Below, piece by piece: positions 5,178 to 58,810 of a stretch of 64,000 nt of DNA. Within the stretch, counting starts at the first letter, position 1. Every line of letters begins with the position of its first letter. Origin of the DNA: a virus (Duplodnaviria; Heunggongvirae; Uroviricota; Caudoviricetes). The position numbers and the translations under genes are program-made. Below the pieces are notes generated by a model. It did no database searches and had not been told where the DNA came from. It worked only from the letters and a program-made list of their open reading frames with translations. The stretch is from IMG/VR virus record IMGVR_UViG_3300036768_001066; one strand, written 5' to 3'.

Positions 5178-5181
5178 TTAT

Positions 5182-5863: not shown

Positions 5864-5911
5864 CTACAAAAACGCTATATTAGCGCGCCGCGGTGAAAGA
5901 CGCAGATAAAT

Positions 5912-5985
<74 letters not shown>

Positions 5986-6684: not shown

Positions 6685-6814
6685 AATGCCGCGCGAGAAG
6701 GTGGAGGAGACATCAAAAAACACTACATGTTCAAGAAGTATCCATAAAGTTCGATTGGGACGGCAGCGTTATGTACGTCAACGGAGAATTTTGGGAATAC
6801 TGGGATTAACCTCC

Positions 6815-6830
6815 GAATATATAAAGAAAC
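6815..6830 (+). promoter_or_regulatory. recurrent upstream motif gaATATATAAagaaac (putative phage promoter element)
   Basis: One of about 14 instances of GATATATAAG(A)AAA found 15-45 nt upstream of start codons; here 17 nt before ATG 6847. Confidence 0.4.
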
Positions 6831-6846
6831 AAATTATCATCATACA

Positions 6847-7632
6847 ATGAAGAGGAGAACAATGCTATTTGAGCAGTTCAACACGGCGAGCGCATTTGAA
6901 GCCCTGTGTGAATCTGTAACAGGCGACATCAAGGACATTCAGGGCGAAGTCAAGGACGTCATGGACGAGCTCGGCAAGGAAGGCGCTAAGGACGACGAGC
7001 TCAAGGCCGCAATCCTTTTGCAGGCTATTGAGAATGACGGGGACCTCGAGGAGATAGATCCAGAACAGCTTAAGAAGGACGTGAAGGAGGGTATGACCAT
7101 CAGGGACCAACCTATTAACGAGAACGCAGGTGGCATCATACATGTAGTGGAGGTCGCTGGTAACTTGCTCGGCAATTCTGCGTTTCTCGAATTCTTGTTC
7201 AAGAAGCTCGAGAAGCTGACCGGTAAGCCGGTCGACGGCGAGAAGGTCAAGGACACCATGAACAAGATCTTCGGAGCATTGAAGAAAGTAACGGGACTGC
7301 CCGGCAAGGCCATTGGTAAATTTTTCTCATGGGTTGCCAAGAAGCTCGGCGCCAATGAAACCGGACAGAAGACGTCGGCACTTCTCGGAATGGGTGCTCT
7401 CGTAATATTCCTGTTCACACTCGGCATTATACACTTCCCGGTTCTGGGTTCTGGAATACTTTGGTGGGTTCTTTCGTTGACCGGCCTTGTTGGCAAGTCG
7501 GCCGAGCTCGCGCACATCTACAAAGAAGTGAATGAGCTCATCAAGAGCGCGGCCAACAAGAAGGCCGAGGCCGAGAAGGAAGTCGGCATGGATGCGGAGG
7601 AGATGGAGAAGCTCGCGCAAGCAGCGGCCTAA
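6847..7632 (+). CDS. membrane protein (several TM helices), hypothetical
   Basis: 261-aa ORF. Acidic coiled N-terminal half, hydrophobic segments ALLGMGALVIFLFTLGIIHFPVLGSGILWWVLSLTGLV. Confidence 0.6.
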   Translation: MKRRTMLFEQFNTASAFEALCESVTGDIKDIQGEVKDVMDELGKEGAKDDELKAAILLQAIENDGDLEEIDPEQLKKDVKEGMTIRDQPINENAGGIIHVVEVAGNLLGNSAFLEFLFKKLEKLTGKPVDGEKVKDTMNKIFGALKKVTGLPGKAIGKFFSWVAKKLGANETGQKTSALLGMGALVIFLFTLGIIHFPVLGSGILWWVLSLTGLVGKSAELAHIYKEVNELIKSAANKKAEAEKEVGMDAEEMEKLAQAAA

Positions 7633-19981: not shown

Positions 19982-21131
19982 ATGCAGTGTATATCGAAGA
20001 ACCCTGAACATGTGGCGGAGCTGCGAGAACTGACCCGGTTTCTCGACGAGATGTATGCACCAGCAGAAAATATTTCCATACAACAGCGGTTCTACCACGT
20101 GTGGTTTTCCAGCTATGAGATTGAGGTTTGTCCATATTGTTCGGCCCCGCGAGAGTTTTCAAAGATGAGAAAATTCTCCATCGATCGGTATGGCATCAAG
20201 CCAACAAATGCAGTTAACTATTACGCTACATGTACTGCTATAGAATGCAAGAAGAAGTATAACTTAGATAAGACGCAGGAAGCAGTGAAAGCTAAGTATG
20301 GAGTCGACAATTATTTTGAGACCAAAGAATGCAAAGAAAAGGTCATAGCGACAAACCGCGAGCGGTACGGTTGTGATCACCAGACGCAATCTCAGAACTT
20401 CAAGGATAAAGTCAAAGTTAACTTATATCAAAAAGTACGGAGTCGAGCACCACACGCAATCCGACCAGTCAAAGAAGAGGAAGATCGATACGGTCCGTGC
20501 CAAGTACGGTGTAGACCATGTGCTACAAAACAAGTCCGTAATGAAGAAGTTACAAAATACAAACAAGGAGAGGTACGGAGGCGCGTCATCGATGTGTTCG
20601 GATGTGGTGAAAGAAAAGGCTCGCAACACAAACAGGTCAAAGCACGGTGCAGACTGGTACACACAGTCCAAGGATTTCAGGGCCAAGTTCAGGGAGACGA
20701 TGGTGGAGCGGTATGGCGTAGAGCACATCATGCAGCACGCTCCGTCGTTTGATGCTAACAAGTCAGCACAGTTCAAGAAGAAATTATACATGTTCCCGTC
20801 TGGTAGGCTCGAGAAGATCCAAGGGTACGAAGGGTTTGCTATCAACGACCTGCTTAACATGGGGTATGTGGAGGACGACATAGTGGTGTCGAACGCAGAG
20901 ATAGAGAAGCACACGGGGCGCATCTGGTATGTCGATTCTGTAGGAATTAAACGCAAGTACTACCCCGATATTTATATAATATCTGAGAATAGAATAGTGG
21001 AGGTTAAGTGCGACTATACATTAAAAACAAACCTTCCATTGAACTTATTAAAAAAACAAGCAGCAGAAGCACTTGGTATTAAGTTCGAGTTTTGGATATA
21101 TAACGGTAAGGGTGTTAAAACTATAAAGTAG
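19982..21131 (+). CDS. putative nuclease: N-terminal CxxC zinc ribbon, tandem about 30-aa (K/R)YGV(D/E)H..Q repeats, C-terminal PD-(D/E)xK-like motif; interrupted by a +1 frameshift near 20400-20420
   Basis: Frame A (19982..20752) reads CPYCSAP..., KAKYGVDNY..., RERYGCDHQTQSQNFKDKVK, then junk. Frame B (20373..21131) resumes the repeat in phase: LTYIKKYGVEHHTQS...RAKYGVDHV...KERYGG...VERYGVEH... C-terminal ...YYPDIYIISENRIVEVKCD fits a PD...E.K nuclease core. Confidence 0.5.
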
Positions 21132-23043: not shown

Positions 23044-23496
23044 TTACTGGTTATGCTTATTTAAGCGGTTCATCTCTCTATCCGCCTCGCGGTTCTTTAT
23101 CGTCTCGCGCTTGTCGTGGAGCTTCTTGCCCTTGGCAACGGCTATACCGAGCTTGCAGATTCCCCTCTGGTTGAGGTACATCGACTTCACCACCACGGTA
23201 GTGCCCTTTATGAGCTTGCCGGCAATCCTCTTTATTTCGGTCTTGTTCAGCAGTAACTTCCTAACTCTCAATGGGTCGTGGTTGTCCGCGGCATCCTGGA
23301 GCGGGTCCACCCGCATCCCCTTGATGAACACCTCGCCCCCGTCTATGTAGGCGTACGCCTCGTTTATGCTCGCGTGGCCCTGGCGTATAGACTTGATTTC
23401 CGTGCCCACCAGCATGATGCCGGCCTCGTACTCCTCTATGAATTCGTACTCGAACTTCGCCTTGCGGTTCTCGAATCGTATGTTGTTGTCTGCCAT
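23044..23496 (-). CDS. smpB: SsrA-binding protein SmpB
   Basis: Full-length alignment by eye to bacterial SmpB (FENRKAKFEYEFIEEYEAGIMLVGTEIKSIRQGHASINEAYAYI...). The C-terminal tail KKLHDKRETIKNREADREMNRL is the canonical SmpB tail. It is a lone minus-strand gene in a plus-strand block. Confidence 0.88.
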   Translation of the reverse strand: MADNNIRFENRKAKFEYEFIEEYEAGIMLVGTEIKSIRQGHASINEAYAYIDGGEVFIKGMRVDPLQDAADNHDPLRVRKLLLNKTEIKRIAGKLIKGTTVVVKSMYLNQRGICKLGIAVAKGKKLHDKRETIKNREADREMNRLNKHNQ

Positions 23497-26885: not shown

Positions 26886-28616
26886 ATGGCAGAGCAACCA
26901 AGCATATTCAAGAAGAACCGACTCGCGATAGAACTGCTCATCGAGGACTCGATAAACTTCACCGTCGACAAGTTCCGCCAGAGCAGGACCAACTTCACGG
27001 TAGCATCCGCTTATGGCCAGATAATCTTTGTCCTGCACAACCTGGCGCAGATGATACTGTACTACATTGAGGACTCCATAACCGAGCTAAACATTAACAC
27101 GGCTACCAGGGCCAACTCGGTCACCGGTCTTGCGCGTCTCGCCGGGCACAACTCTACGAGGGCGATCTCTGCCGTCGGCGAGATCGGTCTCTCGATAAAG
27201 GCCGGGGCGGACATAGACATACCGGGGGGCACCGTCATACTGCCGAACTGGACCAAGATAAAGTGTGTGAACAACGGCCAGACATACATGCTCGACCTAC
27301 CTGGCGACGAGGTGCGCATACCTCTGGACGGGTCGAAGAACGGCACGCCAGTGAACATAATCCAGGGCCTGCTCGAATCGCAGAGCACTACCGGTACGGG
27401 CAAGCCATTACAGTCGTTCTCTCCCAACTTCAACCAGACAGTGCTCGTTGAACACTATCGTGTCAACGTGTACGTCAACGGGGAGAAGTGGAAGCTGTAC
27501 GACTCAATGTACGACATGCCGCGCGAGGCTAAAGGATGCCTTGTCAAGACTGGCATAAATTCCGGTATAGACGTTATATTCGGCAACGGTCACTTCGGCA
27601 AGATGCCTGAGCTCGGCGCCGAGATACTCGTCGAGTACGTGGTGTCATCCGGTCTCAACGGTAACCTCGTGCTCGCCACAGACGAGGAGGCCGTGTACAA
27701 GTGGGACGACGTAGGGTACAATCTGTACGGTGAGGAGCTCGACCTAAACGAACTTCTGACAGTCAGGAGTATCAACGCACCGGACTTTGGGTCCAACCCG
27801 GAGCTGCTCGAGCTCACCAGGCTCATAGCGCCGAAGACTTCCAGGTCGTACACGCTCGCTAACGAGGACCACTGCATCGTGTTCCTCGAGAAGTTCAACC
27901 AGTTCTCCATCATAGACGCGTACACCACGCCGAATGATGCGGACCTGACCGACGACAAGATAATCTACCTGTTCCTCGTGCCAGACGTCAAGAAGAAGCT
28001 GAAGTCTAACGAGAACTACTTCAACATAGACGAGTCGAGGTTCACACTCAACGACTTCCAGAAGGAGAAGGTGCTGACGTTGTTTGAGAGATCCGGGCAG
28101 AAGATAGTGAGCACCGAGCTGCAGATAGTGGACCCCAAGATAAGCAGGTTCGTCATAAACATAGCGCTGATAGTTTTTGACGACATCCCGCAGGATATAA
28201 TAAAGCAGGACGTCATAGAGAAGCTGAGCGACTACTTCTTGAACATCAGGCGAAGGGACCGTATCCCGCGCTCCGACCTCATCTCAATATTGGAGAACAT
28301 ACCGGGGATAGACTCGGTCAACATCTCGATAGTGTCAGAGATAGACGAGCGCCAGTATCAGCTTTCGCTGACGTCGGGAAGGAGCTCGACCGCCAACTTG
28401 GAGCCGCCTCGCATTGACGAGTTCGGCGACATACTCATACAGCCGGGCGAGCTCGCCATAGTGCGCGGAGGATGGACCGACAGGAGAGGCATAACATACG
28501 AGAAGGACGTAGACGACGAGGTACCGAGCTCGGTTAACATCGTCATCAAGAAGGTCATACCGAAGACGTACAACACGGGGGTAAACCAGAACACCAAATC
28601 TAATCTTAGAGGATAA
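26886..28616 (+). CDS. baseplate J-like (gp6/gpJ family) protein
   Basis: 576 aa. N-terminal ...FTVDKFRQSRTNFTVASAYGQ and C-terminal ...RRDRIPRSDLISILENIPGIDSVNISIV resemble conserved ends of the Baseplate_J family. Lies next to the gp25-like gene. Confidence 0.5.
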   Translation: MAEQPSIFKKNRLAIELLIEDSINFTVDKFRQSRTNFTVASAYGQIIFVLHNLAQMILYYIEDSITELNINTATRANSVTGLARLAGHNSTRAISAVGEIGLSIKAGADIDIPGGTVILPNWTKIKCVNNGQTYMLDLPGDEVRIPLDGSKNGTPVNIIQGLLESQSTTGTGKPLQSFSPNFNQTVLVEHYRVNVYVNGEKWKLYDSMYDMPREAKGCLVKTGINSGIDVIFGNGHFGKMPELGAEILVEYVVSSGLNGNLVLATDEEAVYKWDDVGYNLYGEELDLNELLTVRSINAPDFGSNPELLELTRLIAPKTSRSYTLANEDHCIVFLEKFNQFSIIDAYTTPNDADLTDDKIIYLFLVPDVKKKLKSNENYFNIDESRFTLNDFQKEKVLTLFERSGQKIVSTELQIVDPKISRFVINIALIVFDDIPQDIIKQDVIEKLSDYFLNIRRRDRIPRSDLISILENIPGIDSVNISIVSEIDERQYQLSLTSGRSSTANLEPPRIDEFGDILIQPGELAIVRGGWTDRRGITYEKDVDDEVPSSVNIVIKKVIPKTYNTGVNQNTKSNLRG

Positions 28617-29167
28617 TGAGATTTCTAAAGACATACGCCGGGCTCTTTGAGAGCGAGAATAGTGAGAAGAAGCTCGCGTGCGCGCTCGTATCATTCGACG
28701 TGCCACTTCTCAAGACGCTGCACTCTGCCATAGACAAGGAGGACCTCGACGAGAAAGGATTCGAGGATGAGCCGCACGTAACGCTGCTGTTCGGCCTTCA
28801 CCAGGACGAGGTCACGGCGGAACAAGCCTTCGCGTGCATGCGCAATTGCATGGGCGAGGACGGCTGCGGCGACATAACGCTCGGGCCCGTTTCAGTATTC
28901 TCCAACGACAAGTTCGACGTGCTAAAGTTCGATGCCATCGGGGATTGGCTGCATGCCACTAACAGAGAGCTGAAGGAACTGCCACACACAAACGAGTATC
29001 CAGACTACAAACCTCACTGCACGCTCGCATACCTGAAGCCAGGGCTCGGGCAGAAGTACGTTGCGCTTTTTAACGGTCTATTGTACAAAGTGAAGCCGAA
29101 AGAGTTTATATACTCAGACGCCGACAGGAACCAAACAAAAATGCCGATAGTACAAAATGCCGCTTAA
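28616..29167 (+). CDS. 2H phosphoesterase (LigT / 2'-5' RNA ligase / cyclic phosphodiesterase-like); carries the leader (MRFLKTYAGLFESEN)
   Basis: Two H-x-T-x motifs at the expected spacing: PHVTLLFG and PHCTLAYL. Confidence 0.65.
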   Translation: MRFLKTYAGLFESENSEKKLACALVSFDVPLLKTLHSAIDKEDLDEKGFEDEPHVTLLFGLHQDEVTAEQAFACMRNCMGEDGCGDITLGPVSVFSNDKFDVLKFDAIGDWLHATNRELKELPHTNEYPDYKPHCTLAYLKPGLGQKYVALFNGLLYKVKPKEFIYSDADRNQTKMPIVQNAA

Positions 29168-30259: not shown

Positions 30260-31354
30260 ATGAGACACCTAATAAACTTCAGACTATTCGAGGCCGAACA
30301 AAAGGACGGCCCAGTTATATTATATCTGCACGGACTTGATTCCAATCCAGGCGATAAGGGGGAATGGCTCGCGTCGCATTTCAGCAATGTGATTATGCCA
30401 CATGTGGATTATAGGAGGGAAGGATCCACCATATTCAACCAAATAATAAATCTTTTAAAAGGTAAGGAAGTATCATTGATAATAGGCAACTCGATGGGCG
30501 GGTTCCTCGCGTTTTGGCTGTGCAGAAAGCTGAACGTTCCAGGCATATTATTCAACCCGGCTTTGCATAAGCAATCGACCGATGTGCAAGTGGACCGAAC
30601 AGCAAGCGCCACCCCGACTATGACTGTTATACTCGGCAAGAAGGATACATGGATAGACCCCAATATTACGAAGAAGTGGCTCGCCGATAATTACAGCGGG
30701 AACACTGAGATAATAATGGACGATCTCGAGCACCGTATTTCTCGCGAAGAATTCCAGAAACACGTGCTGCAGCTCGTTAAGATGGACGAGAAGTCTGGCG
30801 AGATACTCGATCCGAAGAGAAACCAGTGGGTGGAGATAAATCCAAAGGAACACCCGGAACTTTCTAAGGAGTTCTTCGATCTAATATCGACAGCGTACTC
30901 AGAAATAGGTGGTCATGCAAAAATCAAAAAGCCAGAGGACGTCTTTGCCGACAAGGATTGGAACTTCTGGAGCGGAGTCGATATTCATGGAAGCCCCGAC
31001 CTCGATCTAATTGTGTTCGGACAGAAGACAAAATACGGTATAAAATTCTCCGGAGTCGGACACGACGGACAGAAGGACACGAAGAAAGTGTATCTTGAGC
31101 ATAAGGCTAAAGATTTATCTAAGATAGGTTACTACAGTGAGGTGTCCGGCAAGCTCGCGCAGATATTGATAAACAAGTATCACATCAACGTCATCAACGA
31201 CAAGGACGAGATAAAAAAGTTGATGCCAGGTAAAGATATAATGTTCTATGGCAAACATCCTACGGACCCAGATATGCTAGGCGACGGATGGTACGGTCGC
31301 GATATAGGCGGAAAAGAACACATAAAACTAATGGTGGGAAAACCAAAGATATGA
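30260..31354 (+). CDS. alpha/beta-hydrolase (YqiA-like esterase) fused to an unknown C-terminal domain; carries the leader (MRHLINFRLFEAEQ)
   Basis: VILYLHGLDSNPGDKG ... GNSMGGFLAF (GxSxG nucleophile elbow) ... typical of the YqiA/UPF0227 esterase family. Confidence 0.6.
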   Translation: MRHLINFRLFEAEQKDGPVILYLHGLDSNPGDKGEWLASHFSNVIMPHVDYRREGSTIFNQIINLLKGKEVSLIIGNSMGGFLAFWLCRKLNVPGILFNPALHKQSTDVQVDRTASATPTMTVILGKKDTWIDPNITKKWLADNYSGNTEIIMDDLEHRISREEFQKHVLQLVKMDEKSGEILDPKRNQWVEINPKEHPELSKEFFDLISTAYSEIGGHAKIKKPEDVFADKDWNFWSGVDIHGSPDLDLIVFGQKTKYGIKFSGVGHDGQKDTKKVYLEHKAKDLSKIGYYSEVSGKLAQILINKYHINVINDKDEIKKLMPGKDIMFYGKHPTDPDMLGDGWYGRDIGGKEHIKLMVGKPKI

Positions 31355-32211
31355 AGCACATAAAAACTTATAGCTTATTTGAGTCCGAGAATACCGATGG
31401 TTCTGTTTGGTATCATGGTACCGACAGTAAGTTTGACAAGTTTGATATGTCAAAAACTAAGAGCGGCCCATCGGCTTTCGGTATTTGGTTTGCTGATGAT
31501 GCAGAGCTTGCCAAGATGTTCGGAGAGAACATCATGAAATGCAAGCTGACTTACGAGAATCCGAAAGTTATAACTATGGACGAGTGGGACGCAATACGAA
31601 TGGAGCACACCAAGGATACCGAGTTTTTCAAAAATTGGAAGGCCAAGCTAATATCACAGGGATACGACGCGCTGTTCATCAAAGAACGTTTACAGAAGTT
31701 CGACGGTCACACGGTACGCGACGGTAACATGGTTGCAGTGTTCGATCAAGATGATGCAGAGATAATGAACGAGAATGTCAACGAGAATTTTACGAAGGCC
31801 GGACTCGGGAGCATGATACTAATGACCGGGGAGAAACAACCGGATGGGACGACCAGGCTCTACGCGATACCGATACAGAGAGTATTATCATACGGTAGGA
31901 AAAAAGCAGACAATACCGATGCACAGGATGCCAACATGGTTCTGCTTGGCGATGATTATTATAGGCTGACAATACAAGACGGTAAGATCAAGCCACAAAA
32001 GGTCGGGTTCAGTAGCAAGCCGAATATGCTCAAAGCGCTCGGAATGAGTGAGAAGAATCTATCCGGCGAACGGTTGAAAATCGTGCTGAACTCTAAGACG
32101 GGCAAGACACCTTTACACTGGCGTGCGCTCACTTACAGTTCCATGGGCAAGATGCTGTCAGAAATGGGCAAGGAAATAATGGAACTACCGAACATAAAGT
32201 GGTATAATTAA
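31351..32211 (+). CDS. ADP-ribosyltransferase-fold protein (H-Y-E / Tpt1-KptA-like), paralog B; carries the leader (MKHIKTYSLFESEN)
   Basis: SVWYHGTDSKFDKFD ... FGIWFADDAELAKMF ... LTYENPKV parallels paralog A. ATG at 31351 overlaps the upstream stop (ATGA). Confidence 0.5.
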   Translation: MKHIKTYSLFESENTDGSVWYHGTDSKFDKFDMSKTKSGPSAFGIWFADDAELAKMFGENIMKCKLTYENPKVITMDEWDAIRMEHTKDTEFFKNWKAKLISQGYDALFIKERLQKFDGHTVRDGNMVAVFDQDDAEIMNENVNENFTKAGLGSMILMTGEKQPDGTTRLYAIPIQRVLSYGRKKADNTDAQDANMVLLGDDYYRLTIQDGKIKPQKVGFSSKPNMLKALGMSEKNLSGERLKIVLNSKTGKTPLHWRALTYSSMGKMLSEMGKEIMELPNIKWYN

Positions 32212-35249: not shown

Positions 35250-35535
35250 ATGAAGAAGCTGTTATCACTATTCGCTGCGATTATGATGTCACTGTCGCTT
35301 TTCGCGCAAGATCCATGCGGTTCAAAAATAACGGCGGTTCAGAAAAACAAGGTCAACAAGGAGGTCGATAGGTTCCTCGAGAACGAGGCTTCGGGCGCAT
35401 CTATAAACGGTCCGTTCAGGAAGAAGGTCGTAAGAATACCAGTCGTGTATCACGTGCTCTACACGGATTATCTCGACTGCAACGACTCCTTACTTAAGAA
35501 GCAAATATGGATTACACGGATTACACGGACAATAA
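35250..35535 (+). pseudogene. truncated 5' fragment of a secreted zinc metalloprotease-like gene (signal peptide plus VVRIPVVYHVLYTD)
   Basis: Signal peptide MKKLLSLFAAIMMSLSLFAQDPCG, then a reprolysin/M43-like N-terminal motif. The frame degrades after about 90 aa, where a tandem 9-mer gattacacg x2 sits at 35509-35527, and runs into the next gene. Confidence 0.35.
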
Positions 35536-36165
35536 GTGCATGTAAAAAAGATTTCTCGACAACAAATGATAAGCAAGAAACTCATAGACGGATTGTGGTA
35601 TCACGGGGACAGGCAGAAGCTTGACACCTTCGTCGGCCGTTACCTCGACGCCGAAGACTATTCCCGCGACAGGAACGCGATGGGACCCGGCATATACTGG
35701 AGCAGGCTCAAGTGGCAGGCGTCTGGTTATGCAGAGGGAAGCTACGGATCGGACCCAGGCTGGATATACACCGCAACCATGGAGCTCGATCCGGAACGCG
35801 TGCTCGACAAGAAGACTAAACCGGACGAGGCTAAGCTCAGGAAGTTCATAGACCTGTATCCGGACAAAGAGGAGCTCGAGATGAACCTGCAGAATTACGC
35901 GCAGGACATCGATATGGCGAAGGAGATGGCAGTAGAGGCCGCCATGGACAACGACAACATGCTCGACGCGGCGCTCGGGCTGTACAACGACCTGTATGGC
36001 AGAGACTCGAAGGAATTCGGAAAATCGATGACGGCCATAGGATACGACGCATATCTGCATAAGCTGCCGCAGGTGTACCACCTTGTGGTGTACAACCCTG
36101 AGATAATAAAGATAAAAAAGGTAGAGAAGAAGCTGAAGCATCTCAAGGGACGCGACGATATATAA
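35536..36165 (+). CDS. ADP-ribosyltransferase-fold protein, paralog C (no leader)
   Basis: GLWYHGDRQKLDTF ... MGPGIYWSRLKW parallels paralogs A and B. GTG 35536 or ATG 35566 as start. Confidence 0.45.
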   Translation: MHVKKISRQQMISKKLIDGLWYHGDRQKLDTFVGRYLDAEDYSRDRNAMGPGIYWSRLKWQASGYAEGSYGSDPGWIYTATMELDPERVLDKKTKPDEAKLRKFIDLYPDKEELEMNLQNYAQDIDMAKEMAVEAAMDNDNMLDAALGLYNDLYGRDSKEFGKSMTAIGYDAYLHKLPQVYHLVVYNPEIIKIKKVEKKLKHLKGRDDI

Positions 36166-36186: not shown

Positions 36187-36969
36187 ATGGGTTTATCCAA
36201 AGAGAGCAAAGACCGCATCAAGAAGAACGGCAAGAAGAAGCTGTCCAACTACGAAATGCAGGAAGCATACGACGACGCGAAGGTGGTACAAGAGTTCACT
36301 CACTTCAAAAAGGTGGTTCTTTCGCCGAAGCAGCAGGACTTGTACAAGGGTATATCGAAAAGCGTAATCACAACCATCACCGGTCCCCCGGGAACGTCGA
36401 AGACATTCACTGCATGTTATGCAGCGGTCGAGGCTCTGCGCAAGGGTGAGATAAAGAAGATCTACCTGGTGAAGCCGCTCGAAACTTCCGGAGAGGAAAC
36501 TGGATTCCTACCTGGCGACCTCGACGAAAAGGTAGCACCGTTTGTAGCATCGTTCCTCGACAACCTCAACGAGATGATGGAGCCCAAGGACCTTAAGTCC
36601 GCTATGTTCTCCAAGGTAATAGAATTCGTTCCTATCGCGTTCATGCGCGGCCGTACGCTTAAGGACTGCTACATCATTGCCGATGAGCTCCAGAACTGCG
36701 ACGTGAAGCAGCTGCTCACACTCGTAACGAGGATGGGCAAGAACACCAAGATGATGCTCATAGGAGACCAGCACCAGAACGACATCAACAAGAGGTACGT
36801 TGCGTTCGACTTCTTCATAGAGAAGATCCTCGGCGAGGACGAACTCGTATTCAACTTCAAGTTCACAAGGGAAGACATCGTGCGTCACCCGCTGCTCATA
36901 AAGATAGTGGACAACTACGAGAAGGCGCAGGCGGAAGGATCCCTGCCCGACACAAAGAACAAGAATTAA
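36187..36969 (+). CDS. phoH: PhoH-like ATPase
   Basis: ITGPPGTSKTF Walker A, IIADELQN Walker B-like, MLIGDQHQNDI, and overall PhoH family length and order. Confidence 0.85.
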   Translation: MGLSKESKDRIKKNGKKKLSNYEMQEAYDDAKVVQEFTHFKKVVLSPKQQDLYKGISKSVITTITGPPGTSKTFTACYAAVEALRKGEIKKIYLVKPLETSGEETGFLPGDLDEKVAPFVASFLDNLNEMMEPKDLKSAMFSKVIEFVPIAFMRGRTLKDCYIIADELQNCDVKQLLTLVTRMGKNTKMMLIGDQHQNDINKRYVAFDFFIEKILGEDELVFNFKFTREDIVRHPLLIKIVDNYEKAQAEGSLPDTKNKN

Positions 36970-37248: not shown

Positions 37249-37299
37249 AAGAAAAAGCCCCAGCTTTCGCCAGGGTCTCTTCCATCAATCAAACCAAAC

Positions 37300-39402
37300 T
37301 CACAAACCAACTTTCCTTACAAAATTTCTTCCCCTGATCACGTACACTCCAGGTGTAACAGCGATCGAGTGGTATTGTTGTGTTGACGAATATACGAGGT
37401 TGCCAAGCAAGTCGTACACCTCAACCCTATCATTTTTTTCTAACGTCACACGGATCGTTCCATCGACCTTAGTGATGGTGTATCCGGTTCCGTTCGTAAA
37501 TTCACTCATGCCCGTGCTCATCCAAATAAACACGGCCGACGTATCCGAACAGCCGCTCGCATTGAATACTACGACCTGGTAGTTACCGTTTGACACTGGT
37601 GTCCACGTCTGAGTGTTTGCTGTAGGTATGATGCTACCGTTTAACAACCACTGATATGTGGAGTAAGTACCGGTTGTCAAATCCGCGCCAACCTGCGTGA
37701 TCGTAGGCGTTGGCAACGGGTTAACGGTCACAGACTGAGTGGCAGTGCCAATACATCCGTTTGAATCTGTCACGGTCAACATATAAGCTCCTGTGGAGTT
37801 GACGTTGATAGTAGAGCTCGTGCTGCCGGTTGGCGACCACGAATAGTTTGGGGCGCCAGAACCTGTCAACGTCACGCTGTCACCAGCACAGAAGGTCGTA
37901 GGACCGGACGCGGTGATGGACGCGGTAGGGTTGGCATAAACAGTTACAGTGATAGAATTAGTGGATGGAGTCGCACACCCGTTCGCAGCCACGGCATTAC
38001 AATAGTATGTGCCGGAAGTAGTCGCAGAAATTGACGACGTAGTCTGGCCTGAACTCCAAGAGTAGTTAGGAGAAGCAGAGCACAGAAGAGTTGTGCTACC
38101 ACCGTTACAAAAAGTCGTAGAGCCGAGCGCACTAATCGTTGGAGGTATAGGATTAGCCAGTGTGTTTATTACTTGAGTAACTGAATCGCGAATAAGACCA
38201 TTGATAGCGGTAAGGCAAACAGTGAACGTGCCAGCCACGAACGGAGTAGGACTGGTGTATGTCCATGCGTTAACGGTTGTGTTGGTTGATGTCGCGTAAG
38301 GTGTTCCGTTCACATACCATTGATATGATGTTGCACCTGTTGAAGTGTTTGTTGTTGTCATTGTACCAAGACCACATAGTGAACCTGGAGATGTGCTGAA
38401 AGAGGCCGCCGGGAATGGCACGCTATAACGTATGATGTTATTGGCAGCGACTACTCCGGATGAAACGGTGTTCACGCTCGTGAACGAACCTCCAATATAG
38501 AGCGAGTTGTTGTAGACTTGCATGTCTGTAACACCACCGGCAGAAATAGTCGCGATGGTGCTCGGGTTAGTGCCACTGATTATCTGAGTTGGGTCGTAAC
38601 AGTAGATTGTGCACGGAGAAGTTCCGGCAGTAAAGTACAGCTTGCCTCCGTATGTCTCGCAACGACTAATCGAGTTGTATCCGGTCAAGATAGGATCCCA
38701 TGTGGAACCGTTCTGTCTGAAAAAACCGCCAAGCGGTCCGGCACCACTCATACAAACATAAAGGTTTGTTCCACTGAATACGAAATCGGTCACGGTCTGG
38801 CCCGAGGTGATTGTAGGTCCGTACGCGGCCTGCACATTAGATGTGTTGATTGTGGTTAAACCATAGTAGGTAGCGCCCAAGTTCCATCGCCCGCCGAGGT
38901 ATAGCAACGAGCCCTGGTCCTTGATTTCAGGCGTTCCAACGGTCGAAGCATAGGTCAATGGCACGTTGGTCCACGTGGTTCCAACAAGGCGCTGCACCGA
39001 GGCGCCGGACATGTTTGAGCGGTATAGCTGGCCATTGAACCAGCATAATTGCATTTGACCTCCGAGGAATGTGCCAATCTGTGTCCACGTTCCGGAATTG
39101 CCAGTGGCAGAGTTGTAGAGGCCTTGACCCATACTTAAACCAGTGGTGTAAATTGTAGAACCAGAAGTGGCGAGGTCGCCGTACTGGTAAATTGAGTTGT
39201 ACACGTTGGTCATTGTTGTGCCGTTCCAACGGTCGATGTCGCCCGGATTGGGGTTCGTGTAATTCGTTATGTACAGATTACCGGAATAAACCTCCATGCA
39301 ATTAACCAGATAACTAACACCGGCGCCGCAAGGCAACCACGTCTGAGCGTTAATGGTACCGGCCATCAGGCCGATAGCCAACATTAGAATTGACTTTTTC
39401 AT
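37300..39402 (-). CDS. secreted repeat-rich (Ig/PKD-like NYSWS repeats) protein with T9SS C-terminal sorting domain (type A-like)
   Basis: Signal peptide MKKSILMLAIGLMAGTINAQ. T/S/G-rich beta-repeat body with recurring ...PNYSWS...GC.. units. C-terminal about 80 aa ...VEVYDLLGNLVYSSTQQYHSIAVTPGVYVIRGRNFVRKVGL has the T9SS CTD pattern. Minus strand within a plus-strand block, with atypical amino-acid composition. Confidence 0.75.
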   Translation of the reverse strand: MKKSILMLAIGLMAGTINAQTWLPCGAGVSYLVNCMEVYSGNLYITNYTNPNPGDIDRWNGTTMTNVYNSIYQYGDLATSGSTIYTTGLSMGQGLYNSATGNSGTWTQIGTFLGGQMQLCWFNGQLYRSNMSGASVQRLVGTTWTNVPLTYASTVGTPEIKDQGSLLYLGGRWNLGATYYGLTTINTSNVQAAYGPTITSGQTVTDFVFSGTNLYVCMSGAGPLGGFFRQNGSTWDPILTGYNSISRCETYGGKLYFTAGTSPCTIYCYDPTQIISGTNPSTIATISAGGVTDMQVYNNSLYIGGSFTSVNTVSSGVVAANNIIRYSVPFPAASFSTSPGSLCGLGTMTTTNTSTGATSYQWYVNGTPYATSTNTTVNAWTYTSPTPFVAGTFTVCLTAINGLIRDSVTQVINTLANPIPPTISALGSTTFCNGGSTTLLCSASPNYSWSSGQTTSSISATTSGTYYCNAVAANGCATPSTNSITVTVYANPTASITASGPTTFCAGDSVTLTGSGAPNYSWSPTGSTSSTINVNSTGAYMLTVTDSNGCIGTATQSVTVNPLPTPTITQVGADLTTGTYSTYQWLLNGSIIPTANTQTWTPVSNGNYQVVVFNASGCSDTSAVFIWMSTGMSEFTNGTGYTITKVDGTIRVTLEKNDRVEVYDLLGNLVYSSTQQYHSIAVTPGVYVIRGRNFVRKVGL

Positions 39403-39422: not shown

Positions 39423-39644
39423 TTACGCTTTAAGTTTTAATGCCTCCAAATTGGTGTTCCAAAAAACCTCACCCGGCTTGAAATTCACCTTGTATTTGTC
39501 GATGGCCGCCTGCAGCTTGTCTGTTGGATATTTAGAAAGGGACGCTGGGAACTTCACCTGAGTGTACGCTACCGCGCCCGGTATCCCCCATATAAGATGG
39601 TTGTCAAATTTTCTCTCGAGCTTCTTCATCTCCTTCGGTCCCAC
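39423..39644 (-). CDS. small hypothetical protein co-oriented with the T9SS cargo gene
   Basis: 73-aa ORF immediately upstream on the minus strand. Confidence 0.4.
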   Translation of the reverse strand: MGPKEMKKLERKFDNHLIWGIPGAVAYTQVKFPASLSKYPTDKLQAAIDKYKVNFKPGEVFWNTNLEALKLKA

Positions 39645-39786: not shown

Positions 39787-39815
39787 ATGCGGAAACCTTG
39801 ACCAAATTTCCGCAT
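39787..39815. terminator. 9-bp hairpin atgcggaaa-(11 nt)-tttccgcat in AT-rich intergenic region
   Basis: Perfect 9-bp stem. T-rich on the minus-strand side, so a possible minus-strand terminator or insulator between the convergent and divergent blocks. Confidence 0.35.
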
Positions 39816-53429: not shown

Positions 53430-56400
53430 ATGGCAACCGTACTAAATCTATTCAGGCTTATACCGAGCGACGACCAGCAGTTGTTCACGGACAAGTGCAA
53501 CTTTAACTTCGACCAGATTTTGAATATGGGCGGGGGTCCTCCAGGTATTCAGGGCATCCAGGGCATCCAGGGTGTACCTGGAAGTCAGGGCATCCAGGGA
53601 TTCCAGGGTGACCCGGGCGTGCCTGGCACCAAGTGGTACGTGGAGAACACGGACCCCATCTCGTTTGGTCCGATAACGCCGGCTCCAGCCGAAGGCGATT
53701 ACTGGTTCGACACTAATACGCTCAACATCTACCAGTACGCGGGTTCGCCCCCATCGTGGACGCTCATCGGCAACCTCACGGTTTCCGGCGTGTTCAAGGA
53801 CGCCATCGGTGACTCTGACCGTGTTATATTCAGCAGCCCTACGCCGCTCAAGTCCCTCGTTCTATCCCCGATAAACTACGGCGTTGGAGCGCCACAGACG
53901 GGGCCGTACAAGCTAAAACTTATCGGATCTCCGGGCTCGCCACAGCAGATGTTCGGTGTGCTCGAGTCTGGCGCAGAGAACCTTGCGGCAAAGCAATCGT
54001 ACATCTCCGTAAATACCATAATCGCAAATACCGAATACTCGTGGGAGCTCGTAAACCCAACCGGCAACATCGAGTTCTCTGCATTTGGAACATCTCTCGA
54101 CTTAATAAAGCAGACGGGCACGGGCAGCATAAGCAGGTACGAGTTCAACAGCAACGCGTTCAAAATACAGCTCAACCCTACCGAGAGGTTGATGTCGTTC
54201 TACAACACACCATCCGGATTAAACTGGCACGTGGGCGGACACAACGCATTGACGAGTTCGACCGAGAGGTTGTTCTCCATAAATGACAGCGGGTCCATAG
54301 GCGTAGCCAACGCTTTCAGCAACGCCGTCGCCGGTGATGCTACGCCTTACGATTTCAGGTACGACCAGCTCAACGTGCAGCTTCCGGTAACGGCCGGCGC
54401 CACAAACATGTGGGCACGCTGGAGGGCAAAAGTATCGGGGTTCAACACAGACCAGCTCAACTTCAGGAACGTGAGAAGCTTCTTCGAATCTTCCGGCATG
54501 CCGTGGAGATCTTCGGAGATGCGCATAGAGCACAAGACCGACGCCACGTATAACCACTTCATAGCACTCGGAGGCGGCGCAACATCTGCCAACACGACCG
54601 TAGGAGTCTTCACATTCGTCAACCCACCAAGGCCGGCATTAAGATTCGGTACAGGCGGTACGGCCAATGACGGATACTACTTCGCGGCGGACTCTGGTCC
54701 ATCTGGCGGAGGCGGACTCCCGCGCATGTGGATGGGCGACCCGGACTACATCAAGACCGCGACAGGAACCCTGCTTGGCGGACTTGTAGGTGCAAAGCTT
54801 AACGTGCAGAGCTACAACGCGGCCGCAGGATTCGGTACATCAGGACACTCGAACATACACCTCGCGCCCGGAACTGGCGCTGGCGATTATTCCATACACG
54901 GCATCACGGCCGGGCACCCCGCTTCCGGCAGTGCATCGGACGGTGGTCTCATATTCCAGGGATGGGACAGCGCGAATACAAGGCTGATGTCGACGAGCCT
55001 CGCGGCAGGCGATACTCTTACTGCCGGCATGAGAAACCAGGTATCGGCTTGGTCAAATGGCGAGACATACTTCTGGTCGAGGTCCGACGGTAATGGATTC
55101 TTCCGAATCAGGTCAGGCGCAGTCTACGCAGGCACGCAGTCCAACCCTACAGTCACACAGATGTGGGCGAACGACATCACCACCCTTAGTGGGTACAACT
55201 GGTCAACTGGTCAGAAGTCGATTGTAATAAACGACAGCACCAACTATTCGGGATTCGGAGACGGATTCGTGGGTATAGGCGACAGGTTCAGCGAGTACAT
55301 CACCGCTGGTCCTGCGGTTCTCACAACCGGCAAGTGGTATAAGGGCCCGTGGAGTGGAGCGCCGGTTCACAACGGCATAGACTATCTTGATTTCGTTCCA
55401 TTCCAAGCGGCAAACGCGACATTAACGGCCGGAACAGTCGTCGAGGCCAAGCCTCAGACGAAGTTCCAAGTTTACGGCGCCGTGACCATAGGATCGAGGT
55501 CAAACATTCTCAATTACGCTTCCGACGTAGGCGACGTATCGTTCACGGTAGGTACCAATAACAAGGCGGCAGGGCTAAGGTCCGTTGTCCTCGGTGGCAA
55601 CGGTAACCAGTCGAACGCTAACGACGCGATAATGATAGGCTGGAGCGGATCTCCGGTCGTGAACACAACATTCGCCAACACTATATCGCTCGTGACTGCC
55701 ACGCACGCAAGCACGGCAGGCCCCGCTTCGTACTTGGCCACCACACTGTTCGCGCCTGGTGATATAAGTTTTGGAACTCCACGCTACAGGATCAGTTCCT
55801 CCCCGATAATATTCGCATCCACCGCTGTGCCGGTGCCGCAGTTCGGCGTAGTATCGGAGGTAGGCGACATGGCGCGTGTACTCCTGCTCGAGGGCAGGAA
55901 CACGGGAACTACTTTTGGCGGAGGTCCAAGCCCTTATCTCACAGGCATTCCAGTTATGCTGGAATACGCGGTCAAGAATGGCTCAGGTGCGCAGAGGTCC
56001 ATTGGTGCAGTCATGGGAGAGTACTACGAGGTATCGGGAACGAACCCGACCAACCAACGCGGTAGAATATCCATCGCCGTAAACAGCGGCGCGAGTTTGT
56101 ATCCAGTCGCCAACTTCAGCGCGTCTGGTCTGCAATTCATAGGACAATTCTTCAAGCCGAAGATCAGCGTCGCGCAGAACGGCGTTGTTGGAGGTAGCGG
56201 CATAGCCCTCAGCATATCAGGCGGTGCGGCGAACACCGGAGGCGGCCCAGCAACGGGCGGTCACGTGCTGATAGATGCAGGTCCTGGAGCGAACACTGGA
56301 CTGAACGGTATCGTGGCTGTCGGAGCGGCCGGTTCTACATACGCGGTAAACATAACGCCGTCGACACAGGTAACGATCGGGTCCATATCATCAGGAGCCA

Positions 56401-56921
56401 CCGTGCAGCTCGGTAACGCCAACTCATCCGACGTTGTACAATCATACGGTTCTGTGCAGGCAGTTAAGAGCACGTTCGTTAATCCTGGTCCTACTGCATC
56501 ATCCTTTGTTGGAATATCAACCGGTGGATCTGCCCCAATAGTTGCCACCCAATCCACCGTAGGCGATGCTTTAATCGTAACGTTTACAAAAACTGGTGTC
56601 GGTACGACAACGGTGTCGAGTGGTGTACAATTATTTCATCTTGAGATTGCCGCTGTCGCATACGATAGAACCATTGTGGCGGTCGGTAGTGGTAACAGTA
56701 GCGGTCTTGTTATATGGGAATTAAGATTAAACGGTACCGGTGGAACAATGTATCGTCGCCAACTCAGCGATGTCCATGGTGGCATAGAATTTCTTGTACC
56801 GGCCGGTAATAAAGTCGCGGTCAGGTTGGAATCGACATATCCCGGATATGGTAGTGCATTCACAATGTCTGGTTCAGCTACATTTTCATACTTTTTCAGA
56901 GCATTCAAACACGGATTGTAA
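53430..56921 (+). CDS. tail fibre-like protein with N-terminal collagen-like triple-helix repeats
   Basis: GGPPGIQGIQGIQGVPGSQGIQGFQGDPGVPG (10 consecutive G-X-Y triplets) near the N-terminus, followed by an 1100-aa Gly/Ser/Thr-rich beta-type body. Confidence 0.7.
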   Translation: MATVLNLFRLIPSDDQQLFTDKCNFNFDQILNMGGGPPGIQGIQGIQGVPGSQGIQGFQGDPGVPGTKWYVENTDPISFGPITPAPAEGDYWFDTNTLNIYQYAGSPPSWTLIGNLTVSGVFKDAIGDSDRVIFSSPTPLKSLVLSPINYGVGAPQTGPYKLKLIGSPGSPQQMFGVLESGAENLAAKQSYISVNTIIANTEYSWELVNPTGNIEFSAFGTSLDLIKQTGTGSISRYEFNSNAFKIQLNPTERLMSFYNTPSGLNWHVGGHNALTSSTERLFSINDSGSIGVANAFSNAVAGDATPYDFRYDQLNVQLPVTAGATNMWARWRAKVSGFNTDQLNFRNVRSFFESSGMPWRSSEMRIEHKTDATYNHFIALGGGATSANTTVGVFTFVNPPRPALRFGTGGTANDGYYFAADSGPSGGGGLPRMWMGDPDYIKTATGTLLGGLVGAKLNVQSYNAAAGFGTSGHSNIHLAPGTGAGDYSIHGITAGHPASGSASDGGLIFQGWDSANTRLMSTSLAAGDTLTAGMRNQVSAWSNGETYFWSRSDGNGFFRIRSGAVYAGTQSNPTVTQMWANDITTLSGYNWSTGQKSIVINDSTNYSGFGDGFVGIGDRFSEYITAGPAVLTTGKWYKGPWSGAPVHNGIDYLDFVPFQAANATLTAGTVVEAKPQTKFQVYGAVTIGSRSNILNYASDVGDVSFTVGTNNKAAGLRSVVLGGNGNQSNANDAIMIGWSGSPVVNTTFANTISLVTATHASTAGPASYLATTLFAPGDISFGTPRYRISSSPIIFASTAVPVPQFGVVSEVGDMARVLLLEGRNTGTTFGGGPSPYLTGIPVMLEYAVKNGSGAQRSIGAVMGEYYEVSGTNPTNQRGRISIAVNSGASLYPVANFSASGLQFIGQFFKPKISVAQNGVVGGSGIALSISGGAANTGGGPATGGHVLIDAGPGANTGLNGIVAVGAAGSTYAVNITPSTQVTIGSISSGATVQLGNANSSDVVQSYGSVQAVKSTFVNPGPTASSFVGISTGGSAPIVATQSTVGDALIVTFTKTGVGTTTVSSGVQLFHLEIAAVAYDRTIVAVGSGNSSGLVIWELRLNGTGGTMYRRQLSDVHGGIEFLVPAGNKVAVRLESTYPGYGSAFTMSGSATFSYFFRAFKHGL

Positions 56922-57237: not shown

Positions 57238-57567
57238 ATGAGAGCGGACATAAACAAATTCTCCTGGGCGCAGATGACGTCCAACTCGGACGGCAAAACG
57301 TCCGGATCAGGAACTATGGGCGTATTCACCATGGGCGTGGGCCTTATAGGGTTCCTCGTAGGAGTCACCGACTATTTCATAGACTCCAAGAACGACATCA
57401 TGACGCAGAGCATCGTGGTCATAACCATCGGCGCCGGCTTGCTCGGCTACCGCAAGAGCAAGGACTCTGGAACACCCGCCGATTCAGCTAAGGAGCTGCC
57501 GCAAGGAGATGTCGCCAATCCGGACCAACCGGCGTTGCCAGACGAAACACAACAACTAAACTCGTAA
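57238..57567 (+). CDS. small membrane protein with two TM helices (holin-like candidate)
   Basis: GVFTMGVGLIGFLVGVTDYFI and IVVITIGAGLLGY hydrophobic segments with a charged C-terminal tail, downstream of the fibre genes. Confidence 0.35.
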   Translation: MRADINKFSWAQMTSNSDGKTSGSGTMGVFTMGVGLIGFLVGVTDYFIDSKNDIMTQSIVVITIGAGLLGYRKSKDSGTPADSAKELPQGDVANPDQPALPDETQQLNS

Positions 57568-57569: not shown

Positions 57570-57863
57570 ATGAAGTACATTTTATCATTTCTAACTGTTA
57601 TGGTCACGCTTGGGTTCACTCTGCCGACGCCGCAGAAACCTAAGTACGAATACACCATTGGGCTTGCTGGTGTTGACAACATAGGCAGTGCTAAGGAAGC
57701 TACTGAATACATTAGGTACAGGTTCGAGACGTTCCCAATATTCAATGACACTACTGACCTGTTCAAATTTGAGTCGTACGTTCTTGTGGGTGATAGCTCA
57801 TTCAGCGCAGAATCAGCGCAGCATGGTTACACAGTGGATAAGTTCGAAAGGGCAATCAAATGA
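57570..57863 (+). CDS. small secreted protein (signal peptide)
   Basis: MKYILSFLTVMVTLGFTLPTPQ N-terminus. Confidence 0.45.
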   Translation: MKYILSFLTVMVTLGFTLPTPQKPKYEYTIGLAGVDNIGSAKEATEYIRYRFETFPIFNDTTDLFKFESYVLVGDSSFSAESAQHGYTVDKFERAIK

Positions 57864-58810
57864 AGTTTAAGAGAATAATAACGATAATAGGATTCCTGCT
57901 TGCGGTATTAGTATCGTACGGACAGTCGAGCGATTGTCCAGCGTACTGCTTGTTTAACACGAGCACCTTCACTTTCACGCCAAGTAATGCTGGCGTACAA
58001 GAGCTGAACGCTACGAACCGCGGGTGCCTCGGCATAGAGCACCGTTCGGTGTGGCTGCAGGTTAACATACTCACTGGCGGCACAATGGTGTTTCGTATAA
58101 ACCCAAATGTGAACTCGGACGATTTCGATTTCGCTGTGTGGGGTACATCACCAGCTTGCCCTCCGACAACAGCGCCATTGAGGTGTTCTTATGCAGCAGG
58201 AGGCGGTAACACCGGAGTTGGCAATGGCGCGCTCGATTTATCGGAAGACGTGTTCGGCGACAGATGGGTGATGGCCATGACGGTCAATTCCGGGGAGTCG
58301 TACATAATACTTGTGGACAACTTTTCTGCCAACAGTGGATTTAACTTGAACTGGAACTGGGGCGCGTACAACACGACTGCCACGTTCTCGTGCTCGATAC
58401 TGCCGATAGAACTACTATCATTTGAGGGCGTAGCTACCGACACGGGCAATCTACTAAAATGGTCTTGTGCCACCGAGATAAACAACGACAGGTTCGAGAT
58501 CGAGCGCAGCACAGACGGAATAAACTGGACGGTCATAGGAACGGTGAACGGCGCCGGCAACAGTCATACAACTACCAACTACTCCTTCGTGGACAACAAG
58601 TACCAGAGGGGATTCAACTACTACAGGTTCAGGCAAGTCGACTTTAACGGCGTTTTTGACTACTCCGGGATTATTGTGGTCAATAACCCAGCGGCCCCAG
58701 TAAAGGAGATCTTGAAAATAACGGACGTGCTCGGAAGGGAAGTCCAGTTGACAGAGCCCGGCCTGAAGATAATAATATACAAGGACGGCACCACGTCCAA
58801 GCAGTACTAA
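57860..58810 (+). CDS. secreted protein with T9SS type-B (SprB/gliding-motility-associated) C-terminal domain
   Basis: Signal peptide MKFKRIITIIGFLLAVLVSYGQ. C-terminal ...LLSFEGVATDTGNLLKWSCATEINNDRFEIERSTDGINWTVIGTVNGAGNSHTTTNYSFVDNKYQRGFNYYRFRQVDFNGVFDYSGII matches the gliding-motility CTD pattern. Confidence 0.7.
   Translation: MKFKRIITIIGFLLAVLVSYGQSSDCPAYCLFNTSTFTFTPSNAGVQELNATNRGCLGIEHRSVWLQVNILTGGTMVFRINPNVNSDDFDFAVWGTSPACPPTTAPLRCSYAAGGGNTGVGNGALDLSEDVFGDRWVMAMTVNSGESYIILVDNFSANSGFNLNWNWGAYNTTATFSCSILPIELLSFEGVATDTGNLLKWSCATEINNDRFEIERSTDGINWTVIGTVNGAGNSHTTTNYSFVDNKYQRGFNYYRFRQVDFNGVFDYSGIIVVNNPAAPVKEILKITDVLGREVQLTEPGLKIIIYKDGTTSKQY

Follow-up and report, generated by a model that had tools for sequence, protein, structure and literature searches.

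Two predicted exported proteins related to type IX secretion cargo encoded in the DNA of a very large phage

We analysed two genes in a stretch of 64,000 nucleotides of tailed-phage DNA (Caudoviricetes; IMG/VR record IMGVR_UViG_3300036768_001066), which is referred to below as the window. An earlier note, made from the sequence alone, had proposed that the two genes encode type IX secretion system (T9SS) cargo proteins, each with an N-terminal signal peptide and a T9SS C-terminal domain (CTD). The two open reading frames (ORFs) were both present where it had placed them, one of 700 amino acids (aa) on the minus strand and one of 316 aa on the plus strand. The genes, their domains (Ig, immunoglobulin) as assigned with the help of AlphaFold2 (AF2) models, and a small partner gene are as follows.

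37300..39402, minus strand: gene for the 700-aa protein, predicted to be exported, with signal peptide, beta-propeller, four Ig/PKD-like domains and a divergent type-A-like CTD
39346..39402, minus strand: signal peptide of the 700-aa protein, aa 1-19; predicted cleavage exposes Gln20
38413..39315, minus strand: putative beta-propeller, approximately aa 30-330, from AF2 strand groups and remote relatives
37522..38400, minus strand: four tandem Ig/PKD-like domains, aa 335-627, from PF06832, repeats, sequence identity and Foldseek
37303..37521, minus strand: C-terminal domain, aa 628-700, a putative divergent type-A T9SS CTD lacking the PNP motif
57860..58810, plus strand: gene for the 316-aa protein, predicted to be exported, with signal peptide, Cys-rich PPC/collagen-binding-like domain, FN3-like domain and a putative 40-aa half-CTD
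57923..58390, plus strand: binding-type beta-sandwich at the N-terminus (aa 22-177), in which Cys and the DFDFAVWG motif are conserved
58391..58687, plus strand: FN3-like "pre-CTD" domain, aa 178-276 (LPIELLSF...NYYRLKQVD)
58688..58807, plus strand: 40-aa putative half-CTD tail with conserved Gly292, Gly301, Asp309, Gly310 and Lys314
57570..57863, plus strand: 97-aa protein with a signal peptide, partner of the 316-aa gene, whose start it overlaps by 4 bases

The DNA is that of a phage, and of a very large one. Comparison with the PHROG families identified a baseplate wedge subunit (26886..28616, E 7e-23), PhoH (36187..36969, E 2e-65), a Dda-like helicase (E 5e-92), a head-tail adaptor and a DNA-polymerase-like protein, and by these matches phage genes lie on both sides of the two ORFs. 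No host housekeeping gene other than phage-borne SmpB and transfer RNAs (tRNAs) was recognised in the window. The exact 316-aa protein occurs on three contigs, of which two have lengths of 0.2-1 Mb; the longest contig recorded for its protein cluster is 373,759 bp; and between 48 and 64 kb ten ORFs of the window are collinear with a 482-kb IMG/VR contig (L042; related contigs and loci are given L numbers). No close relative of the window was found among GenBank phages. The flanking phage genes, the long contigs and the synteny with L042 thus speak for phage DNA, as the earlier note had supposed, and against host chromosome beside the end of a prophage.

Both proteins are predicted to be exported by the Sec pathway. 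The 700-aa protein begins with MKKSILMLAIGLMAGTINA followed by QTW (...GTINA/QTW, the slash marking the predicted cleavage site) and the 316-aa protein with MKFKRIITIIGFLLAVLVSYG followed by QSS (...VSYG/QSS), and in each a basic n-region precedes a hydrophobic core, with a cleavage site of small residues standing before a Gln. These signal peptides were called by sequence inspection and a simple hydrophobicity scan, without a trained predictor, and are kept in homologues; in the alignment of the 700-aa family (alignment A1), the pattern MKK...(A/S)Q followed by TW is retained in members P0002, P0006 and P0010. Among the 72 non-overlapping ORFs scanned, the candidates were the 700-aa, the 316-aa and the 97-aa ORFs, and a protease remnant at 35250, described below, brings the signal-peptide ORFs of the 64-kb window to four. 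Exposure of Gln by cleavage corresponds to the Q-rule of Bacteroidota (PMC5837995), which has previously been noted for Porphyromonas phage proteins (PMC10367356).

The family of the 700-aa protein has seven members in alignment A1, with 33-100% identity, all of them on phage-like contigs. The AF2 model (mean predicted local distance difference test score, pLDDT, 77) begins with a signal helix and continues with roughly 27 strands, arranged in groups of four as far as aa 306 and read as the propeller, four Ig-type domains at aa 335-627 and a last all-beta domain at aa 641-699. Among the matches of a homologue search, the propeller domain is common only to the phage family. A HMMER scan of 1.84 billion representative sequences with the propeller yielded a few full-length relatives and many repeat-wise matches, and propeller-repeat matches to DUF5122/Rax2-type proteins reached E-values down to 1e-12. 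Ten propeller relatives were scanned, seven of which had DUF5122 or Rax2-type propeller matches and five of which passed the Por_Secre_tail cutoff. No near-identical or protein-level relative of the 700-aa gene was found among GenBank phages, and a scan of IMG/VR with the family gave two weak matches, confined to the Ig region.

The Ig region scored 36.4 bits against PF06832, which is over the cutoff, and matched Ig_7, PKD_3 and Ig_2 weakly; it is 35-48% identical to Bacteroidota Ig_7/PKD proteins that end in PF18962 or PF13585. The repeated PNYSWS...NGC units and the distinct composition described in the earlier note were both confirmed: there are two units, and the copies of PNYSWS (aa 445, aa 518) and of NGC (aa 474, aa 548) are spaced by 73-74 residues, and the protein is richer than the other genes in Thr (16.3 versus 6.0%), Gly (11.1 versus 6.9%), Ser (11.0 versus 6.6%) and Asn (7.6 versus 5.8%). 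Foldseek searches of the PDB with the model returned as best matches the Ig arrays of GhpA, the grappling-hook protein of Aureispira; the PDB and BFVD matches were mostly generic Ig arrays with low template-modelling scores (TM-scores), which do not tell a secreted adhesin from a virion fibre.

We accept the C-terminus of the 700-aa protein as an apparently complete but divergent type-A CTD. In hhalign, a profile of the seven phage C-termini matched 44 bona fide PF18962 CTDs with 96% probability (E 3.3e-9, 71 columns). The same profile, searched against all PDB sequences, gave as its top match 7pq4_A, a 90-aa Arg-gingipain chain that aligned over its full length (E 0.037) and that we take to be the isolated RgpB CTD. 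Like the phage domain, 7pq4_A lacks the PNP motif and has 'YTVAVSGKTITV' at the position where most CTDs have PNP. Lys697 is invariant in the family, in which VYDLLGNLV is also present (alignment A1), and a Lys near the C-terminus is the sole nearly invariant PorV-contacting residue of CTDs (Lauber et al. 2024, PMC10994853). A hidden Markov model (HMM) of the phage CTD matched other (bacterial) proteins at their extreme C-termini only, and AF2 modelled aa 641-699 as an all-beta domain with pLDDT 75-90.

For the 316-aa protein, AF2 gave a model with pLDDT 90.6, in which the tail forms three short strands (284-288, 303-307 and 312-315). Six cysteines and the DFDFAVWG motif of the N-terminal domain are kept across 117 relatives. 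The SprB/type-B CTD that the earlier note had assigned to this protein was ruled out, since neither the protein itself nor 17 sequences of its FN3-like domain plus tail (the FN3 + half-CTD module) matched TIGR04131 or PF13585 at E<=1 in NCBIfam and Pfam. The protein ends in the FN3-like domain and what appears to be half of a type-A CTD, and some longer relatives have a full PF18962 (type A), not PF13585, after the FN3-like domain.

When aligned with full CTDs, the short tail corresponded to beta3 and the following loop (KITDVLGREV) and to the last two strands (GLKIIIY and TTSKQY), the middle segments being absent. Comparison of 70 distinct short tails with 99 full CTDs in hhalign gave 90% probability (E 1.8e-6) and a matching gap pattern. 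Gly residues of the tail are conserved at 96-100%, Tyr at 93%, Asp at 84% and Lys at 83%; Lys314 is invariant in alignment A4 and conserved at about 83-90% across wider sets, and the tail motif reads N/D-x-L-G-Q/R-E-V. In the CTD topology, beta3, beta6 and beta7 are three of the four strands of the sheet beta4-beta3-beta6-beta7, and the secretion-relevant motifs of Porphyromonas gingivalis CTDs are the beta3-beta4 loop and the C-terminus (Mizgalska et al. 2024, PMC11285876). Because alignment and hhalign place the tail on beta3, beta6 and beta7, it is read here, from its sequence, as half of a type-A CTD (beta3 with the beta3-beta4 loop, beta6 and beta7) that keeps both motif regions and Lys314.

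Both genes are under purifying selection. The ratio of nonsynonymous to synonymous substitution rates (dN/dS) was 0.05-0.25 in every domain of both genes; it was 0.15 in the half-CTD tail, and for the 700-aa gene compared with three relatives it was 0.05-0.21 for the whole gene and 0.21-0.25 for the CTD. Synteny around the 316-aa gene extends to L168 and to the 482-kb L042. A homologue of its 97-aa partner lies directly upstream of relatives of the PPC-like N-terminal domain in L008, L088, L089 and the bacterial locus L100, and in L100 the pair has a bacterial counterpart in which the larger protein carries a full CTD. No family is annotated for the 97-aa protein, and a homologue search in a set of 5.8 billion proteins found just two close relatives. 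Upstream of the pair lie a gene for a fibre-like 1163-aa protein (53430..56921) with a collagen-like Gly-X-Y run at its start and, between this gene and the pair, a 109-aa ORF (57238..57567) with two hydrophobic segments, whose product may be a membrane protein.

The distribution of the FN3 + half-CTD module was followed in viral and bacterial sequences, the best 80 loci of each scan being considered and the seed patterns differing between the two. The IMG/VR scan found 333 stretches coding for a relative, and in its best 80 loci the match mostly covers aa 178-316 only; the GTDB scan (one genome per species) found at least 596 relatives, the best 80 loci all being in Bacteroidota. In every viral case the module closes the ORF. 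These ORFs are 228-1149 aa long with unrelated N-terminal parts, and nearly all complete ones start with MKK...hydrophobic...SQ/GQ/AQ, as signal peptides of the Bacteroidota type do. The N-terminal parts are mostly unannotated, with matches to GEVED and FN3 and weak matches to GBD_T9SS_assoc, and a recognisable enzyme domain was found in none of the ten proteins scanned. What follows the FN3-like domain was counted in both sets.

Bacterial genome loci (108 ORFs): full type-A CTD in 97, short tail in 9, other in 2
Viral loci (84 ORFs, about 60 distinct): full type-A CTD in 0, short tail in 83, other in 1

Two of the nine bacterial short-tail cases (L088 and L089) have phage genes in common with the window. 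The short form also occurs amid housekeeping neighbours in L131, a locus on a complete Fluviicola chromosome, and in L109, and a half-CTD exclusive to phages was ruled out by these Fluviicola chromosomal loci. PF18962 is not present in several proteins from Crocinitomicaceae metagenome-assembled genomes (MAGs). Only four GenBank phage records gave a match, all of them metagenomic genomes of 462-642 kb; LR745206 has a signal-peptide ORF in which the FN3-like domain is followed by the short tail, and LR756504 one in which it is followed by a PNP-less CTD-like end. Module genes were also seen in tandem, with three in a row in L109 (a Fluviicola MAG, 3..7239) and two in a row in L026, L069 and L070 (IMG/VR). 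No Pfam, NCBIfam or PHROG model was found for the module, and a PDB sequence search with it gave weak matches only, including 8bbl_A (E 0.42). The latter is a solved 901-aa beta-N-acetylhexosaminidase whose end, ...VYNAQGMRLNGMQQGLNVVLFADGTAQKVF, resembles the half-CTD tail, and a structure of a half-CTD-like tail may thus exist already.

We consider it possible, if still doubtful, that the FN3 + half-CTD module is a distinct and undescribed T9SS signal for sorting or anchoring, at home in Crocinitomicaceae-like Bacteroidota and widely adopted by their phages, including those of 0.3-0.6 Mb, for surface display of varied binding proteins. The half-CTD would then represent a single sheet (beta3-beta6-beta7) of the CTD sandwich, which the FN3-like domain in front of it possibly completes.

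The surroundings of the 700-aa gene bear on its history. The following features lie near it.

37258..37275, minus strand: terminator-like hairpin with T-run, directly past the 700-aa stop codon; a pattern match, in a count not above that of shuffled sequences
39423..39644, minus strand: 73-aa ORF upstream of the 700-aa gene; what is left of a longer gene that, compared with L003, has lost about 265 bp internally
39787..39815, minus strand: hairpin with a 12-bp stem, within the AT-rich spacer that lies upstream of the minus-strand unit
35250..35624, plus strand: secreted Peptidase_M43 remnant, homologous in 35250..35507 only, with the HExxH part deleted

The 700-aa gene and the small remnant ORF upstream of it are the only credible minus-strand genes between about 23.5 and 42.9 kb, which agrees with the earlier description of a single sizeable minus-strand gene in a plus-strand stretch of about 20 kb. 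The AT-rich flank with its hairpin was likewise found, the kilobase upstream of the gene having a GC content of 0.443 versus about 0.51. Scans for sigma-70 promoters and terminators near the gene gave counts no higher than in shuffled sequences, and the hairpins are thus descriptive only; the Bacteroidota promoter consensus TTTG...TAnnTTTG had two matches versus 0.65 expected, neither of them upstream of the genes studied here, and was uninformative.

The slot between PhoH and the genes for the 240-aa and 692-aa proteins holds a homologue of the 700-aa gene in L170 (80%), L003 (86%) and L005 (33% identity), and the homologue in L004 (75%) lies in another context, among recombinase, methylase and GmrSD genes. 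In L003 (9265..11917) the homologue was called without a signal peptide (638 aa) and an upstream 233-aa ORF enters out of frame, which reflects either a frameshift or an assembly error. The GC content at third codon positions (GC3) of the 700-aa gene was 0.53 versus about 0.70, and its codon-usage distance of 0.22 ranked second among 34 genes, every other gene longer than 550 aa having about half this value at most; the Ig part was the most deviant portion (GC3 0.47). Because the same slot is occupied down to 33% identity and dN/dS is 0.05-0.2, the gene is an old, maintained resident and not a recent insertion, and its repeats may still exchange with host genes. The suggestion that it is an acquired moron therefore fits in part: the opposite strand, the terminator-like hairpin and the deviant codon usage agree with it, but the shared slot in relatives and the purifying selection do not. 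The 316-aa gene has ordinary codon usage (D 0.138) and lies on the strand of its neighbours.

The truncated secreted metalloprotease gene described at 35250 proved to be a real deletion remnant. Its first 86 aa are 96.5% identical to an intact 309-aa signal-peptide gene of family PF05572 in the same slot of L003 (L003 13372..14301), which has the HEIGHWLGLLH motif and no CTD. Relative to L003, about 600 bp have been lost, including the HEIGHWLGLLH zinc-binding region; the 35250 ORF has no Pfam match, and the catalytic HExxHxxGxxH domain is not present in it.

Taken together, what was observed here on the structure of the genes, on their signal peptides and domain homologies, and on their conservation, distribution and selection suggests, at a probability that we put at roughly 0.55, that the two genes code for accessory, non-virion proteins of a very large Bacteroidota phage that are exported by Sec and descend from host T9SS cargo families. 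T9SS-dependent export, a surface location and a binding or masking role are what we infer for both. All bacterial relatives of the two proteins are from Bacteroidota, which suggests a host of this phylum. The 700-aa protein would be exported by Sec, cleaved before Gln and folded in the periplasm into a propeller head, an Ig/PKD stalk and a CTD. This CTD, which is PNP-less like that of gingipain RgpB and is taken to be of the complete seven-strand type, would dock to the SprA/PorV translocon of the host, and the protein would reach the surface of the infected cell, where the propeller, held out by the Ig stalk, would serve in binding. Together with its 97-aa partner, the 316-aa protein, whose binding domain is probably rich in disulfides, would be made with the late fibre genes and then exported, and the FN3 + half-CTD module would either enter the T9SS pathway or anchor the 316-aa protein in the envelope, as a shortened sorting or anchoring signal of Crocinitomicaceae-like hosts that phages have adopted. 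As speculation, the purpose may be to mask or bind surface structures of the infected cell, which would exclude other phages or shield the progeny from debris. The roles in superinfection exclusion, adhesion or gliding suggested by the earlier note are likewise speculative.

Several observations weigh against T9SS cargo as the nature of these proteins. The 700-aa CTD, which the earlier note had regarded as recognisably type A, scored 15.0 bits against TIGR04183 (cutoff 23) and 17.9 against PF18962 (cutoff 27), so that its homology was established by profile methods only; a weak PF18962 match was found in only two of the seven family members, the PNP motif is absent, and our own CTD HMM did not detect this CTD at E<1e-3. 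The 316-aa protein matched neither TIGR04183 nor PF18962, and its gene sits in a tight same-strand run behind fibre-like genes, a position that would suit a structural gene. With our CTD HMM, no canonical CTD was found in the viral loci (about 1.3 Mb) or in the window, and host-lineage sampling may explain part of the contrast between viral and bacterial module loci. The translocon pocket holds a seven-strand sandwich (PMC10994853), which is a difficulty for the three-strand tail of the 316-aa protein, and in P. gingivalis the integrity of the CTD fold is essential; across species, CTDs can be incompatible (PMC11285876).

These observations lend weight to the serious rival, which we hold to be rather improbable, that the proteins, chiefly the 316-aa one, are exported by Sec without use of the T9SS and stay in the periplasm or attached to the envelope, their CTD-derived ends being leftover domains or decoys for PorV/SprA. 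The failure of the curated CTD models and the lack of a canonical CTD in the 1.3 Mb of viral loci would be expected in that case, as would a 316-aa tail devoid of beta1, beta2, beta4 and beta5, given the stress that the literature lays on an intact seven-strand fold (PMC10994853, PMC11285876). Yet the tail is strongly conserved (dN/dS 0.15), retains exactly the two motif regions linked to the T9SS and sits where bacterial homologues have a full CTD. Its occurrence on Fluviicola chromosomal proteins argues for a working host signal, and the CTD of the 700-aa protein appears to be a complete domain.

It is unlikely that the two proteins are parts of the virion, that is, fibre or decoration proteins that reuse the Ig, FN3 and propeller folds of host adhesins. 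The location of the genes is compatible with such a role, since the 316-aa gene follows closely behind the genes for an 1810-aa and the collagen-like 1163-aa fibre-type proteins on the same strand and the 700-aa gene adjoins large structural-looking genes; moreover, PHROG 3995, "tail protein", matched the Ig region (E 7e-7), and the BFVD matches included tail fibres and Hoc-like proteins. However, these virion-protein matches are generic Ig arrays only, with TM-scores <=0.30, the bacterial homologues are T9SS cargo, and the 700-aa gene lies on the opposite strand with the terminator-like hairpin directly past its stop codon. Tailed-phage virions assemble in the cytoplasm, whereas cleavable Q-rule signal peptides and conserved cysteines point to folding outside it. 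That the genes are decaying passengers, or host DNA at a prophage edge, is very improbable, for the neighbouring deletion remnants (the M43 gene at 35250 and the 73-aa ORF) and the L003 copy lacking an in-frame signal peptide are outweighed by dN/dS well under 1 in all domains, full-length conservation in the same slot down to 33% identity, and phage genes on both sides with phage-borne SmpB and tRNAs as the sole housekeeping genes identified.

Other features of the window were noted as well. An SmpB homologue is encoded at 23044..23496 on the minus strand (PF01668, 166 bits; phrog_6791), and ARAGORN found no transfer-messenger RNA (tmRNA) gene in the window. A tRNA cluster at 5182..6191 comprises six calls (Asp, Ala, Cys, Glu x2), the call at 6117..6191 having a four-base anticodon (ttgc). 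A homing-endonuclease-like ORF at 19982..20752 on the plus strand (phrog_12131/3339) is the top codon-usage outlier of the window (GC3 0.44, distance 0.35) and probably represents a mobile insert. Three accessory ORFs (28616..29167, 30260..31354 and 31288..32211) are located between the baseplate gene and that for a 1002-aa protein; their types are Acb1 or 2'-5' RNA-ligase-like (near threshold), UPF0227 esterase-like (GC3 0.545) and ART-PolyVal ADP-ribosyltransferase-like.

The proposed exported proteins can be compared with several known systems. With type-A T9SS cargo (TIGR04183/PF18962), such as RgpB of P. gingivalis, they have in common a Sec signal peptide followed by functional domains and, putatively for the 700-aa protein, a beta-sandwich at the C-terminus, the CTD of this protein aligning over its full length with 7pq4_A and with the 44 CTDs and sharing the Lys near the C-terminus; they differ in falling below both curated cutoffs and in being phage-encoded, and the 316-aa protein keeps only about half of the domain. 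Propeller repeats are shared with DUF5122/Rax2-type proteins that carry Por_Secre_tail, but the propeller family of the 700-aa protein itself was found only on phage-like contigs. Among Ig_7/PKD-rich T9SS adhesins, fragments of GhpA come nearest to the Ig array in structure, but the 700-aa protein is far smaller than GhpA or SprB and lacks SprB repeats and a type-B CTD. Phage morons and superinfection-exclusion envelope proteins, such as Llp of phage T5, are exported non-virion proteins that alter the surface of the infected cell. The 700-aa gene resembles them in its opposite strand and deviant codon usage; there is no sequence relationship, its slot is conserved in distant relatives, and a role in exclusion is hypothetical.

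Phage-encoded T9SS cargo as an idea is not new. Cryophage genes with T9SS type-A sorting domains were reported in 2020, and their authors, who called phage T9SS cargo a unique occurrence, proposed a hijack of secretion that affects surface properties or superinfection (Bellas et al. 2020, PMC7468147); this was the single such report found in the literature searched. Cryophage thus likewise encodes T9SS-CTD proteins, but its cargo consists of enzymes or PA14 proteins with annotated type-A domains in hypervariable islands, in contrast to the non-enzymatic, binding-type proteins with non-canonical CTDs found here, one of them in a conserved huge-phage slot, and the half-CTD module was not described for it (PMC7468147). 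Huge phages are said generally to encode cell-surface proteins, and the largest genomes of Al-Shayeb et al. 2020 were assigned to Bacteroidetes hosts (PMC7162821). A few viral proteins in UniProt are already named after GEVED, SprB-repeat or Por-secretion domains. What appears to be new is the PNP-less, gingipain-like CTD carried by a propeller-Ig protein that is fixed in a lineage of huge phages, as well as the FN3 + half-CTD module and its heavy use on viral contigs.

Even if export through the T9SS fails, the module still marks a large family of accessory proteins in phages that lacks annotation. Phage ORFs without annotation, in their hundreds, could be given the label of exported effectors of the host surface, and the short module is a possible compact secretion tag. 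If it is a true signal, the half-CTD would show how little of a type-A CTD the translocon needs, a point on which two structural papers touch indirectly. In flavobacteria, sensitivity to phages is linked to gliding and to T9SS surface proteins, and if the CTD and the half-CTD drive export, phages of Bacteroidota would routinely re-dress the infected cell by way of the T9SS of their host.

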